Both the position numbers and the translations under genes were made by a program. Positions 23,871 through 45,760 of a stretch of DNA of 64,000 bases are shown one piece after another; positions within the stretch are counted from its first letter, which is position 1; every line of letters begins with the position of its first letter. The DNA lies in the IMG/VR virus record IMGVR_UViG_3300021962_000025, positions 96,001 through 160,000 of that record; one strand, 5' to 3'. The DNA comes from a virus. The notes beneath the pieces are model-generated. The model did no database searches and was not told the origin of the DNA. It saw only the letters and a program-made list of their open reading frames with translations.

Positions 23871-24788
23871 ATGGCAATAGGAAGTTATGGTACTGTAAGA
23901 CCTTCAGATGTTTCACCTTCAGACGTGGAAATCTTCTTTCACTATGTGACAGGGAGGACTTCTAACGCTCCGGTGCAGTTTAAAAAATTAGATTCGGAAG
24001 ATATTTTGACACCCGTATATCATAATTCATTTACTACGAATGCTGCTTCGGCGGTAGATACTGAGATTTTAGGTGGTTTATACAACCTAAGGTTAGATTC
24101 GGACGATTTTGATGAGTTGGGGATTTACACTCTCCACATTAGACCTAAACAGATAAGAACCTCAATCACTGATTGTGGGATTTTAGCATCTCTATCATCT
24201 GTCAGAGGGATTATTATTGATTTAAGTAATGTCCCCTCGGATGACAGAAATAAATTTACACCCCAAGGATTGGTGGGATATAGAATAGAATATTTGAATA
24301 GTGATGGTAGTAAAATACCAAACTTTTACAGAATGGTTACGTCCTCATTCTACTGTAATCCAATCGCATCTAATTTAACTAGTACAACACAAAAAGCCAT
24401 TAGATATCAGTACACGGATCAAGCAACTAATTTATTGTTTCTTACTGTGACCCCGTCATCGGCACCAACCAATAAACCAAACACAGTTCCTTTTATTGGT
24501 GAACCATCACAAAACATCATTTTAACTAATACCTTCTTCAATCCAACAACAATTGAAATTGAAATGGTTGAACATGATGACACCACATTGGCATACGCAC
24601 TTTATGGTAATCAAAGTAAATCCGTCTCTGATGGTATTTACACAATTTACACTGCGGATAACAATATATACAAACAGTTTAACCTGTTTGAAATCAAAGA
24701 TGAGTTCAACGAAACACTTTACGAAATACGTGAAGAAAGGGACGAAATTGATGATACTAAAAACTTTGATGATATCACTGAATTATAA
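23871..24788 (+). CDS. Putative baseplate/tail structural protein (305 aa)
   Basis: Upstream TATTTAT at 23851; stop overlaps the start of the 2720-aa gene. Confidence 0.6.
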
Positions 24789-27700
24789 TGGCGAAAAGAA
24801 AAGTTCCAAGTCAAGCGGCAAGTGGAAGGGAAACCTTTAACGACAACTTGATCGGTAACCAAATTACCGATGGGTCTAGCCAATTTACTGCTACGAACTT
24901 TTCAGTTGAAAAAACCATTCCTCAGAGAGATAGTAAAACTTTTAAATCAGTACCATTTTCTGAGTTTCTTACCTTAGAAGATCTTGGGGAAGAAACTAAG
25001 GCACCGACAACATCATCACCAACCACCAGTAAAAAAGATAATAAAGTAAAGTTTAGGGATTCTAAACAAGATGGTGGAAAATCACTTTATGGATCTCTTA
25101 AAGAGAGATTATCGGTATCCGTACAAAGAATTGTAAGGAAGTTCCCTGCGGGGTTCTATGTTGATGGAGACACCCCTGTGGCATCCACCATCTACACCGC
25201 TGAAAACATTTCATACAATCAAAGAACTAACGTTACAACGTTTGAGTTTGAAAAGTCAAAAATATTCAATCCACTTGAGGTTGTTTTCACTAAACCTAAG
25301 AGTAATACTCAACCAACAGTTGACAACGAGTTTAAAAATTTCTTTTCAAACTATTCAAAATATGCTTTATCGTTAAATAATAAAACTTATAATGTTTTAA
25401 GTTTTACTGACGATACCTCCACAATTACTTTAGAGGTTAGTGGTAGACCATTTACCTCATCAACATACAGTGAAAGTTTTTTAATAAGACCTGTTGATTC
25501 TATTGTCGAGGAATTTTTTACAAATCTAGATGATTTAGAGTCTGTTTTACTTAATAGGGAAACTAGTCCAATTTATACTGCTAGTTTTAAGGTACCACAG
25601 AATTCTTTAGATGGGTCTAGAACTGAATTAACCACTGTTAAACTTAAGTGGCCACTTTTTAAGGATGGGTGGAACATAAAGATAACAGGGTTAGAATACT
25701 CTAATTACCTCACCAGGCTTAAGGACATTGGGGAGGAAATAGATAACTATAAATCTAATTTGGTTGTCAGGTTCCTAACAACCGCATCCCTTAACGAATT
25801 CGATACCGAAGACAAAAGGATGGGTTCGGTTTTACAACTGTACGGTACATCCTTTGATCAGGTAAAAAAATTCATTGATAATGTGGCTTACATGAGAAAT
25901 GTAAGTTATGATGGGATTAAAAACGTACCGGACATTTTATTAAAAAATCTATCTAACACTTTAGGATTAGATTCGGTAAATCTATTTGATGAAAAATCAT
26001 TAGAGGACACACTTTATAATAGAATAGAAAGTCAATATGGTGGTGTAGGTCTCGGTATGAACATGGTTGAGGCCGAAACAGAATTCTATAGAAGATTAGT
26101 AATAAACTTAGTTCATATCTATAAATCTAAAGGAACTAGAAAGGCGTTAGAATTCTTTCTGAGATTTATAGGGGCACCCGAACCTTTAATTAAAATAAAC
26201 GAACATGTTTATAGGTTTGATGATGTTAGAAAGGTGGATGAGGATATTGATTCGGATATCTACGATTTAGTACAAGGAAATAAGACATTTAATGTTGCGG
26301 AACTATCCACAACAGGTTTCACATATTCAAACACAACAACCACAGGATCAACAATTTACTCTGATTCTGAATATCCAATTGTACTTACGGGTGTTACAAA
26401 ATATGGTGACGTAAAACCAATTGTAAGTGAGGATAATGATGTGTTTTTCCAAAAAGGTGCGGGTTGGTATGATATTACATTAGAACACAGATCTTCTTTA
26501 GAAATTGATACGGAAAGGTCTAATCTAACCAGTAACCCAAAAGTAATTAAGACGAAAAATAAGGATTATACATATGGTGAGGAATACTTCACATTGTATA
26601 GACAATTTTATGGTTTAGATTATGGGTATGAATTACACAATACCGTCAATAACGAAAAGGCGGAATTATTGGGTGACACAGATAGTAAAACACTTAACAG
26701 AAAGAATATACAAATCTATCTTTCCTCTGCCCAAGCATTGGAGTATGATGTTTATAGACAATCGAGAAAATTAAGGGTAACCTTTGGAACCAACACGATG
26801 AAACCTCAAACAGGTTTTACGTTTGCGGAATTTTTAGATCAAGTATTAAACGAACAAATAAGGAATTCTCACACTGTTCGTTACCAAAAGTCCTATATCC
26901 AATTAGAAGATATATACACTAGTTACTTGGAGAAGGTTCCAAATCCTTATAGTAACCCAACGGTAAGTGAATTCATTAATAGAATGAGTCCATATTGGGT
27001 ACAAGTAATTGAACAATTTGTGCCTGCAACTACACTATGGACCGGTGGTAACATTATTGAGAATCATAAGTTAGGGAGGTCAAAATATGAATACATTAAA
27101 CCTTGCCAAACAAATGAGTTTGTACAAAATGTCTTCCCCGAATTTGAAACCGCAATTGAGGAGGATTTAGAAACACTGATTTTAGGTGATAAGGATGTCT
27201 TTAGAGGTCTTACCATTCTTAGTGGTGTGACATATACCCTTTTCATTGAGTTAGAGGGCGAGATCTACCAAGGTGACGACTCTATAGTTTTAAGTGGAGA
27301 AACTCAAAACGTAAACTCTTTAGCTTGTGAAAATATTATCCAATCACACACTCATGCGGGTTTATTTGAACCTTTTAATATCACATCCGAATGTACATCA
27401 ATAAACGATGTAGAGTTTAACGGGGTTCCATTTGATAAAACAAAACACCTCCCATTACTTTGTGATTTTAAATGTCATTTAGAACCACAGAGAGAGATAT
27501 TAGATTGTTTATGGATTGAAGAATTAAAAGATATTATCGATAATCAAATCAATACCAAATACTATAAAAGAACACTTTATAGTGGGGGTGAAACCATAAA
27601 TAATCACGCGGGATGGGTGGACTATCAAGTAAGTGGTAACACAACCTTAGAAGGTAATTACTTAGGTGAATTAACAACAAATTCGGAAATCTATGGGTAT

Positions 27701-44396: not shown

Positions 44397-44981
44397 ATGG
44401 GATTACTTATTCGTATATATGATATAAAGTCGGAAAATGATTTCGATTTAAGTGTGGGGTTCTCACCTTATGGACCTTTCACATCATTACCGAACCCAAA
44501 TAGGGTTGACGGGTCGTGGCCATCATCTAATTTAAGAAATTACTACACCGAACCAATTTATATTGGGGACAACGACCCCATGGTACTAAATGGAAAACCA
44601 TCGATCACGGATATTGTTGAATATGATTTAGAGTTTGACACCCAATATTGGTTAAAAATAGAGGATAAAATAAATGTCATTGATTTATGTGGGGGTAATA
44701 ACACACCTAGGTTTATAGTAGAAAACATTTATATACACGACTCTAAAGCGTTTGAATGCTATGATAGAGTCGCCTTTGATGTTGTCTACGATCCTGATAC
44801 GTGTCCTACACCCACACCATACCCATCATCCACACCATACCCAACATCTATTGTTGATTGTGATATAAACGCAAATTTTGTGGAGTTCTTTGGAACGGAT
44901 TGTGATATAGATGCAAATTTTGATGAGTTTTTTGACGTATTAGATTGCCAATTTGAAGCAACATTTAGAGAGAACACATGA
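44397..44981 (+). CDS. Small structural protein with PT linker and three DC-x5-F-x-E modules
   Basis: DCDINANFVEFFG, DCDIDANFDEFFD, DCQFEATFREN; TATTTAT at 44383. Confidence 0.7.
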   Translation: MGLLIRIYDIKSENDFDLSVGFSPYGPFTSLPNPNRVDGSWPSSNLRNYYTEPIYIGDNDPMVLNGKPSITDIVEYDLEFDTQYWLKIEDKINVIDLCGGNNTPRFIVENIYIHDSKAFECYDRVAFDVVYDPDTCPTPTPYPSSTPYPTSIVDCDINANFVEFFGTDCDIDANFDEFFDVLDCQFEATFRENT

Positions 44982-45760
44982 GTAAGTTAATAAGAATAAA
45001 TCTAGGTGTCGACCCTGATCACAATTTAGCGGATTTTCCCGTTAATATATATACGGGTACAACTACAGGAGATACAACAAATTGGGGTTTTACAGAAACC
45101 CCCGTTATAACATTTCCTATGGTTATTACCACACCTTTTGAGTTTTGGGTTGACGACGAACTACTCTCTTTTGGTATAAGGTTAGAAAGCGGTGGATGTA
45201 ATAATGTTGATCTTTTGGTTAACGCGCCACGAGTTGATTGTGAAATGTGTATGAATGTAGTACCATACAATGCACCCCAACCGACATCAACTCCCCAACC
45301 AACACAACAACCCACAGCAACACCAATCCCATCATCAACACCTAATTCTACCAATTCACCAACATCAACACCTAATTCTACCAATTCACCAACATCAACA
45401 CCCAATGCGACTCCTAACCCAACACCCAATGCGACTCCTAACCCAACACCCAATGCGACGCCTAACCCAACGGTTGGTACGTCATCTTATTATCGAATAC
45501 AGACTTGTAATAATGCATTAGATATACATGTGCCAAAGAATGTTTATTGTGCTGGTGGATCACTCTCGACATTGACAAACTCGTTTAGTATCGGTGAAAC
45601 CGTACAATTAATATTTGCTAATGGGGGATGTGGGTCGGCAACTTATTGTGGTATCATAGTCGATGAAAATTTCCAAGCACCCTTAAATTCAGAAAATGGT
45701 TATATTTCTAGAATCGTTCCAGTGGGGGGATGTGAAGATGACTCACATTGTGTTCAATAA
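44978..45760 (+). CDS. Modular appendage protein with PT/PN stalk and tip domain shared with 32993..40675
   Basis: IQTCNN...C.GG.....SFSIGETVQ....C..ATYCGII aligns with ITTCNN...CNGG....SFKLGDVVQ...C..ATYCGTI. Confidence 0.7.
   Translation: MSKLIRINLGVDPDHNLADFPVNIYTGTTTGDTTNWGFTETPVITFPMVITTPFEFWVDDELLSFGIRLESGGCNNVDLLVNAPRVDCEMCMNVVPYNAPQPTSTPQPTQQPTATPIPSSTPNSTNSPTSTPNSTNSPTSTPNATPNPTPNATPNPTPNATPNPTVGTSSYYRIQTCNNALDIHVPKNVYCAGGSLSTLTNSFSIGETVQLIFANGGCGSATYCGIIVDENFQAPLNSENGYISRIVPVGGCEDDSHCVQ

Follow-up and report, generated by a model that had tools for sequence, protein, structure and literature searches.

Exchangeable parts in a candidate adhesin cassette beside the baseplate genes of an uncultured phage

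Here, we describe a run of eight co-oriented open reading frames (ORFs), designated A to H and all on the (+) strand, within 64,000 nt of viral DNA that correspond to bases 96001-160000 of the 183,758-bp record IMGVR_UViG_3300021962_000025 (~59% complete according to CheckV); this whole stretch is referred to as the window. Seven of the eight share parts, namely N-terminal domains (heads), Pro/Thr/Ser stalks or linkers, a short Cys-containing strand, and C-terminal tips. On balance, the locus is probably a hypervariable cassette whose products are accessory adhesins or side fibres of the virion, and the phages that carry it would form a large uncultured aquatic clade with Flavobacteriia-like hosts. 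Comparison with related loci gives good support for recombination that shuffles head, length, and tip. We infer with fair confidence that the proteins are located on the virion and are adhesive, the adhesive role being read from tips of adhesion type: cadherin, SprB, and von Willebrand factor A (vWA). They may also be linked to host range.

An earlier note on this DNA, made from the letters alone, had proposed seven genes drawn from one parts list. The ORF list confirms these part-sharing genes as A (24788-32950), B (32993-40675), C (40767-41396), D (41495-41965), E (42020-43864), G (44397-44981), and H (44978-45760). The count of seven is therefore right, with the qualification that an unrelated eighth gene, F (43907-44353; 148 amino acids [aa]), is embedded among them, between the terminator of E and the TATTTAT motif of G. 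In a domain-level comparison, F has no part in common with A-E, G, or H, and it has no Pfam, PHROG, or PDB match. It is missing from the two close relatives that were examined, yet present in natural contigs, and it looks like an inserted cargo gene.

The comparison within the window was an all-against-all BLASTP with low-complexity masking, repeated at the domain level, and the pairs found with masking on are exactly those that the earlier note had named. The N-terminal domains of B and E are 36-39% identical over 70-74 aa (E 1e-6; 9.5e-12 at the domain level), and the more divergent domain of C proves to be related to this B/E type when profiles built from relatives are compared (hhalign 94.5%, E 7.6e-8, 70 columns). 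Looser links by hhalign join the C and H types (63%) and the D and H types (71%), and the G type stands apart. Pro/Thr/Ser stalks are present in A, B, E, G, and H, and are short in C and D. The short Cys strand is common to A, B, D, and G, with one degenerate strand in H at the end of its N-terminal domain; the Cys repeats of D and G match each other by BLASTP (E 2e-4). Two families of tips are each used twice, as had been claimed: the C/E pair is 53.5% identical over 114 aa (E 3e-32) and the B/H pair 39% over 56-57 aa (E 6e-3 for whole proteins, 2e-6 at the domain level). A vWA tip on A, also proposed earlier, has a predicted vWA fold in an AlphaFold2 (AF2) model and an invariant DxSGS motif. 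All the claimed parts thus pass statistical tests, so the similarity of the shared modules is significant, and E has in addition four small Cys-rich bead domains that were not on the original list. None of the shared parts was found elsewhere in the 183,758-bp record by domain-level comparison.

The evidence for exchange comes from relatives. Using the flanking genes at 23871 and 45811 as anchors, we fetched 159 IMG/VR loci in which these anchors are 77-90% and 39-73% identical, respectively, to those of the window, and in which the anchor-to-anchor distance ranges from 3.6 to 28 kb. In the smallest cassettes, a homologue of A (1178-1340 aa) is the sole gene; it encodes the conserved core, then a Pro/Thr stalk, and lastly a Cys-rich tip of small size. 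When 239 unique complete cassette proteins were clustered by their first 90 and last 110 residues, they fell into 56 N-terminal versus 123 C-terminal clusters; 171 of the 239 have one of the six head types seen in the window. Each head type is joined to many different C-termini (C, 38; A, 23; G, 18; D, 9; B/E, 9; H, 7), and tips in turn occur on several head types (six for the B/H tip, five for the vWA tip).

Direct examples come from two contigs whose upstream anchor is 87% identical to that of the window. These include a G-type head with a vWA tip (L002, 4682-5782; L005, 4501-5637), an E-type head with an H-type tip (L005, 5692-6489), and a C-type head with a B/H-like tip (L002, 3987-4592). 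In locus L086, the homologue of A stops before the vWA tip. The order of head types is permuted in close relatives, and one tip family occurs on at least two head types within the same cassette in 10 of 47 cassettes. In each swap, the matched N-terminal and C-terminal parts are separated by a Pro/Thr linker; the joins, therefore, lie in linker-coding DNA. With strand number and linker length also varying, the proposal that anchor, length, and tip are shuffled by recombination holds, and the locus is anything but invariant among syntenic relatives. A diversity-generating retroelement was considered as the source of tip variation and rejected, as the record (~59% complete) contains no reverse transcriptase.

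The particular combination of genes in the window also exists in nature. Between 55 and 98% of the 31-mers of the 5.1-kb right half of the cassette are present in 20 sequencing runs from 12 studies, comprising estuary, marine, lagoon, freshwater, and biofilm metagenomes dated 2018-2025; there are no RNA runs among the listed runs that hold the cassette. Outside the repeats, contigs from four runs of four studies match the cassette with few differences; those from independent estuary and marine runs bridge B-C-D-E (39439-42363; 0 differences in run X4) and the E tip-F-G-H (43260-45382), with 0-2 differences. Because independent contigs cross these junctions, the gene combination is a stable genotype rather than an assembly chimera. 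The contigs of these four runs break at the Pro/Thr tracts, and the read comparison disregards, as artefacts of repeats or foreign contigs, the many Pro/Thr-repeat joints with sides shorter than ~32 nt, as well as depth in the bin 42608-43174. Small length variants were seen as well: one contig of estuary run X9 has an extra 48-nt tandem unit at 41837-41884, which adds one more Cys strand to D, and two runs have a 12-nt insertion in the Pro/Thr linker of E, after position 42343. In the disregarded bin, 42608-43174, summed contig depth reaches 460-6000 versus ~5-20 elsewhere in all four runs, probably from unrelated abundant organisms that match Pro/Thr-coding DNA at 85% likeness.

Gene A is the member that never varies in place. 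Its homologues directly follow the homologue of the gene at 23871 in all related loci, and its first ~800-1000 aa are found in every related cassette. The conserved core (aa 1-1543; 24788..29416) is 44-63% identical to its homologues, and is probably the baseplate-anchored part; as the core is conserved everywhere and comes directly after the baseplate gene block, A is most likely a baseplate-anchored fibre. The core family includes at least 764 proteins of phage type, none with a name or a Pfam domain, and the core has no PDB sequence match. Next come a Pro/Thr/Ser stalk (aa 1544-2367; 29417..31888) with 15 Cys strands and a Cys-rich pre-tip domain (31889..32326), which ends in a strand-like junction and is conserved in homologues of A with or without a vWA tip.

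The 207-aa tip of A (32327..32947) is predicted to adopt a vWA fold with a sequence that resembles a metal ion-dependent adhesion site (MIDAS), DxSGS. This assignment is supported by an AF2 model with a predicted local distance difference test (pLDDT) score of 92.5 and a predicted template modelling (pTM) score of 0.90, for which VIA-align gives integrin beta-I and VWF A1 as the best matches (Z 10.2-9.2, 147-159 residues aligned). Judging by entry titles, at least 40 of the best 50 rows are vWA or integrin I-like (Z 10.2-7.7, 138-173 aligned). The Foldseek match is weak (best E 3e-3, to the VWA domain of RGLG1). Residues D18, S20, G21, and S22 of the tip are invariant in 30 homologues and are located at the end of the modelled strand 11-18. 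Neither A nor any of these 30 homologues has a Pfam match, and the tip has no PDB match with either a single sequence or a profile; UniRef, for its part, names two bacterial homologues as VWA domain proteins.

At least 156 proteins carry homologues of this tip behind many different N-termini. Among the bacterial ones are lipoproteins of 526-534 aa (P0170, P0209, and P0201, from Salegentibacter, Antarcticibacterium, and a Bacteroidota metagenome-assembled genome [MAG]). The C-terminal domain of the Flavobacteriaceae lipoproteins is 45-50% identical to the phage tip, which suggests an adhesion domain common to host surface and phage, and the 526-aa proteins begin with a signal peptide and a lipobox cysteine. 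Read by eye, the N-termini of all seven phage proteins lack both a lipobox and anything that resembles a signal peptide. Their absence fits assembly of the particle in the cytoplasm, with the many cysteines oxidising only after lysis.

The heads of the remaining proteins are small and conserved. In the case of the C type, 1769 of 1.84 billion cluster representatives match the profile (499 at E <=1e-10), and among the 150 best of these, which are proteins of 78-499 aa, the head begins somewhere in residues 1-6 in all but two. Two proteins, P0346 (1044 aa) and P0425 (633 aa), carry the C-type head as an internal tandem array, of nine and eight stretches, respectively. The C head (40767..41021) is modelled by AF2 (residues 1-81) as a six-strand sandwich with a pLDDT of ~75, predicted to be of the immunoglobulin (Ig)/FN3-like kind, and it has no Pfam match. 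Since such a head is small and conserved, is strictly N-terminal, and is followed by sequence that varies, we read the heads as putative Ig/FN3-like attachment adaptors. Their cysteines follow a pattern: heads of the B/E type have exactly one Cys, at an invariant column near the end of the domain, in 14 of 15 family members, and C-type heads have a 90%-conserved Cys just before the linker, with an odd Cys count in 52 of 63.

In gene B, behind a B/E-type head of ~80 aa (32993..33232; BLASTP), lies a Pro/Thr/Ser stalk (33233..33667) with two Cys strands (33416-33448 and 33635-33667). This is followed by an array of ~11 cadherin-like domains (33668..36982, boundaries approximate; Pfam PF00028, E 8e-97, 11 stretches, 318 bits versus a gathering cut-off of 28.8) and by one of ~11 SprB-repeat units (36983..40387, boundaries approximate; PF13573, E 2e-70, 11 stretches, 233 bits versus a cut-off of 28), the latter showing a 480-nt periodicity in the DNA. 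The SprB region also matches PHROG 26672, 'virion structural protein' (E 2.5e-24). The protein ends in a small Cys-rich tip of the B/H type (40388..40672; BLASTP).

C joins its head to a tip of the C/E type (41058..41393), a small alpha/beta domain modelled at a pLDDT of ~90. The whole C model has no Foldseek match in the PDB below E 0.05, and its VIA-align list is taken up by matches to the N-terminal domain; its matches in BFVD are confined to uncharacterised proteins, from Virus NIOZ-UU157 and Cellulophaga phage phi17:1. For the C/E tip, the ESM Atlas gives only unnamed viral clusters, with scores under 0.9. D has a head of its own type (41495..41779), which in 17 relatives is followed by nine different C-termini, and ends in four tandem Cys strands of the ...F.EFFE type (41789..41962; a period-48 tandem repeat). 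E consists of a B/E-type head (42020..42277; BLASTP), the four small Cys-rich beads separated by Pro/Thr linkers (42278..43525), and a C/E-type tip (43526..43861; BLASTP). Beads like these are found in D-type and E-type proteins of relatives. G carries a head of ~131 aa that is unrelated to the others by profile (44397..44789) and, like D, ends in tandem Cys strands, here three of the ...F.EFFE type (44853..44978). H has an H-type head that ends in a strand-like VDCEMC... segment (44978..45271) and a B/H-type tip (45488..45757; BLASTP). In Pfam and PHROGs there is no match for A or C-H, save a low-complexity linker match in H and a marginal one in C.

A further shared part is the Cys strand. 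Gene A encodes 14 copies of NCDFG[VI][DI]VDIA, the first at 30011 and the last at 31742-31774, plus one variant strand (29783-29821), at a spacing of 23-57 aa. There are two strands in B, 3-4 in D and 2-3 in G (both of the ...F.EFFE type), and one degenerate strand in H; outside the cassette, none is found in the whole 183,758-bp record. In A, 13 of 15 residues are invariant over the 14 copies, with synonymous variation at every codon, and the copies are degenerate tandem repeats that are only 60-80% identical as DNA. Taken together, these observations indicate a peptide under purifying selection rather than a fresh duplication. Relatives contain 427 copies in 81 of 306 cassette proteins (a regular-expression count), with the consensus [ND]-C-[DN]-F-[DG]-[VI]-D-[VI]-D-[IVL]-[AV]-T and an NCVFD variant in one subclade; in close relatives, the homologues of A carry 10, 16, 16, and 22 copies versus 14 here. 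In N-C-D-F-D-V-D-V-D-I-A, residues C, F, V, V, and I point to one face and Asp to the other. Such a pattern would suit an amphipathic edge strand, and has the alternating-hydrophobic character of donor strands.

A scan of 185,579 bacterial and archaeal species genomes with a degenerate DNA pattern found the multi-copy strand only on one phage-like 248-kb contig. This contig, CBFHJJ010000001.1 (248,233 bp; L160/L161), is binned in a Flavobacteriaceae MAG, has at least 10 Cys strands in a Pro/Thr context, and is probably a jumbo phage of the clade of the cassette that was mis-binned as bacterial. Single matches in Chloroflexia, Campylobacterales, and Marinilabiliales were discarded as chance or out of frame. 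Two in Saprospiraceae were set aside for a different reason: the protein that contains them is bacterial and multi-domain, and they are not strands of a stalk. In the literature searched, neither this strand nor docking of phage fibres by donor strands is described, which is no proof of absence.

How might these parts work together? We propose that A would be the constant member, a baseplate-anchored fibre, and that the other genes would be add-ons. Each add-on protein would be fixed to the particle by its small N-terminal Ig/FN3-like head, its reach would be set by a stiff Pro/Thr/Ser stalk, and its C-terminal part (vWA-MIDAS, cadherin and SprB arrays, or small Cys-rich knobs) would do the binding. 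New combinations would arise through recombination in linker-coding DNA, gene duplication, and tandem gain or loss of stalk units, and the outcome would be a change in what the particle sticks to and at what distance.

A further step concerns the strands. Those on the stalks of A and B could dock the accessory heads by beta-strand pairing, perhaps locked by disulfides, to give a branched appendage; failing this, the heads would bind baseplate proteins directly. For this step we favour strand docking, tentatively and at rather less than even odds. Slightly less likely again is a fuller version, in which A (15 strands) and B (2) serve as scaffolds in the manner of a cellulosome scaffoldin, each strand is a plug for one accessory head, possibly held by a disulfide between the single Cys of the strand and the conserved one of the head, and the whole forms a re-configurable tree of a dozen or more tips; a branched apparatus, which the earlier note had put forward, is possible. 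The distribution of strands by head type counts for docking: they occur in none of 63 C-type proteins (52 of which have linkers), in 19 of 40 of the A type, and in 9 of 15 of the B/E type. They are present, moreover, in 13 of 15 cassettes with accessory genes versus 0 of 8 without (Fisher p 9e-5, kinship ignored). With one Cys on each strand and an odd number or a single conserved Cys on the head, the sequences suggest a free thiol on both partners.

A complex prediction gives docking weak support. The C head (residues 1-85, with a custom alignment) was paired with a 46-aa piece of stalk holding two strands, and the score was 0.50 versus 0.04 for the best control; the runs agree in at least 97% of contacts and the pLDDT of the partner is at least 58. 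Of 80 solved complexes, 58 reach the mark applied to the score, as do 2 of 110 mismatched pairs; these counts are a rough guide only, as a custom alignment was used here.

Several points weigh against the reading as a whole and against docking in particular. Attachment to the baseplate or capsid is deduced only from the position beside gp25-like and gp6-like genes and from the types of domain. None of the eight proteins matches a fibre family of Pfam or PHROGs at E <=0.01; the same searches bear out the remark that the proteins do not resemble T4 long tail fibres, as no T4-type fibre family (gp34-37, gp12) was matched. The C head resembles FN3 domains with a Z of only 5.2-6.5 (64-79 aligned), which is the level of a common fold, and, with their Pro/Thr linkers and beads, the proteins look more like flexible chains, possibly monomers, than like the trimeric fibres of classical phages. 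As for docking, complex scores of 0.60 or less are reached by only 7 of the 80 solved complexes and by both mismatches, so that without a good prior a score in this range misleads more often than not. When placed on an A-core tree, the association between strands and accessory genes reduces to about 2-4 independent changes, most of it carried by one 12-member clade and the lineage of the window. Two loci (L016 and L042) have accessory genes but no stalk strands, and strands outnumber accessory genes several-fold.

These points lead to the alternative that survives best, which we regard as possible though on the unlikely side: the fibres are independent and unbranched, each head sits on its own baseplate or tail site, and the strands act as stalk staples or a length ruler through Asp-bound Ca2+ or disulfides. 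The strands would then pair between chains of one fibre or between neighbouring stalks, stiffening the stalk or setting its length. Independent fibres are the classical arrangement of multi-fibre phages, and the link of strands to accessory genes is weak after phylogenetic correction. Amphipathic strands suit self-pairing, their number and spacing vary as those of a length ruler would, and the tandem strands in which D and G end without a tip could be an oligomerisation element. A general stiffener, however, is hard to reconcile with C-type proteins that have long Pro/Thr stalks and never carry strands, as counted above, or with A-only cassettes that have long stalks but lack strands, and the odd number of Cys in the heads also speaks against staples.

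It is improbable that the products are instead decoration adhesins on the capsid, neck, or tail, binding polysaccharide, mucus, or marine particles and so raising the encounter rate rather than determining host range. Ig-like, cadherin-like, and vWA domains on flexible linkers would suit this role, for which T4 Hoc and other Ig-like decorations provide a parallel, and the accessory genes are dispensable (8 of 23 cassettes have none). Modular Ig-like phage adhesins are reported in the literature (PMC13370021). The cassette, on the other hand, lies inside the baseplate block, after conserved baseplate-region genes and not with the head genes, and its turnover is as extreme as that of receptor-binding genes. 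Very improbable is a set of non-virion proteins that alter the surface of the infected host, block superinfection, or are host adhesin cargo: the vWA tip and SprB repeats are held in common with host surface proteins and F is an unrelated insertion, but all seven lack the signal peptide and lipobox of the bacterial vWA homologues, the genes have the orientation and the upstream motif of the structural genes, and the A core is conserved throughout its phage-type family.

Returning to the reading of a virion adhesin cassette, several known systems provide useful comparisons. The repeated units on Pro/Thr-rich linkers recall the cellulosome scaffoldin, a long protein with repeated cohesins (150 aa) on such linkers, whose clients each have one dockerin and a variable domain, just as the cassette proteins combine one conserved domain with a variable part. 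The unit here, however, is an 11-residue strand rather than a 150-aa cohesin, there is no sequence relation, and docking is only weakly supported. Donor-strand complementation is known from chaperone-usher pili and from type V pili of Bacteroidota, and in a similar way a short alternating-hydrophobic strand could complete or extend the Ig-like sandwich of another subunit; unlike these pili, the cassette has no chaperone or usher, and there would be one scaffold with many strands, not one strand per subunit. With its 11 SprB repeats and 11 cadherin domains, B resembles the SprB gliding adhesin and other surface proteins of Bacteroidota, from which the phage proteins differ in lacking signal peptides and type IX secretion C-terminal domains and in starting with phage-specific heads.

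Tail-fibre mosaics of T-even and P2-like phages, the subject of work by Tetart et al. in 1998 and Haggard-Ljungquist et al. in 1992, reportedly change adhesin specificity through recombination at short conserved motifs. Here, too, domains are swapped at short conserved or repetitive joints between otherwise unrelated segments, but the joints are low-complexity Pro/Thr-coding DNA and no homology to gp34-38 was found. A close likeness is with the anchor-branch receptor-binding systems of Klebsiella and related phages, which exemplify how multi-fibre phages are known to be organised (Latka et al. 2019, PMC6872550; jumbo phage RaK2, PMC3622015). Both have a row of genes beside the baseplate genes, conserved N-terminal anchors, and exchangeable C-terminal binding parts, and in the Klebsiella systems specificity is set by horizontal exchange of those parts. 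In contrast, the anchors of the cassette are Ig/FN3-like heads of ~80-130 aa with Pro/Thr linkers, and protein-protein docking is here a prediction only. No T4 gp10-like anchor, beta-helix, or depolymerase was detected in the cassette, its tips are vWA, cadherin, SprB, and small Cys knobs, and its repeated 11-residue strand has no counterpart in those systems. What is known, therefore, is the logic of an anchor with exchangeable tips; new are the Ig-like heads, the beads on Pro/Thr strings in the style of bacterial adhesins, a pool of tips in common with host surface proteins, and the conserved 11-residue strand.

In uncultured marine phages, no traits are harder to predict than host range and attachment. 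The cassette offers a readable parts list (a handful of head families, linkers, one strand, and more than 100 tip families) that extends over at least 764 A-core proteins and 1769 head clusters, and tip content could serve to compare adsorption specificities across metagenomes. The tips held in common with Flavobacteriaceae surface proteins point to an exchange of adhesion domains between phage and host. If docking is true, the strand would be a tiny connector between proteins, of a new kind, and phage appendages would be seen to assemble on a new principle; a scaffold tree would be a way of building virions for which no virus offers a described precedent.

With respect to the genome setting, the cassette is preceded by gp25-like (13196) and gp6-like (13668) baseplate wedge genes, and then by five conserved genes without a family, and is followed by a conserved gene of 763 aa (45811) and a RuvC-like resolvase. 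The order of the five genes between the gp25/gp6-like genes and A, and of the gene after H, is kept in relatives. The gp6-like protein has only distant cultured relatives, the closest being that of Flavobacterium phage immuto (25% identity). Among 50,697 phage records searched with megablast and tblastn, there is no match in cultured phages for the DNA of the baseplate block, the A core, E, C, or the vWA tip. That the phage is large and has Flavobacteriia-like hosts is indicated by several observations: the low G+C content of the window (~35%), the SprB repeats in B, the homologues of the vWA tip on chromosomes of Salegentibacter and Antarcticibacterium, and the cultured gp6 closest to that of the window.

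The earlier note had counted a TATTTAT motif at five of the seven genes; we find it at four, 14-34 nt upstream of C (40733..40739), D (41471), E (41993), and G (44383), and again before the next gene, 45811 (45774). It also occurs at 15548, 23851, and 48133, 12-24 nt before the starts of structural-region genes at 15560, 23871, and 48157. The total in the window is at chance (30 versus 33.9 expected), and the placement just upstream of starts is not. The motif may be a late-promoter element or part of the translation-start context.

Two genes were said to be followed by terminators, and intrinsic terminator hairpins are indeed present on the (+) strand after C (41425..41451; AAACCCTC....GAGGGTTT, then a T run) and after E (43876..43903), the second being a near-copy of the first (AAACCCTC....GAGGGTTT plus a T run). 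The DNA of the C and E tips is 70-80% identical in blocks. Given the near-identical hairpins after both genes, tip and terminator were duplicated as a unit.

Finally, the Pro/Thr-coding tracts leave their own marks on the DNA. Antisense ORFs of up to 322 aa lie over these tracts (29839-31932 and 45019-45453, both on the (-) strand); as by-products of CCN/ACN codon repeats, they are artefacts. Pro/Thr coding likewise accounts for the local base composition at 30-32 kb, where G+C peaks at 0.485 and GC skew is strongly negative (-0.39).

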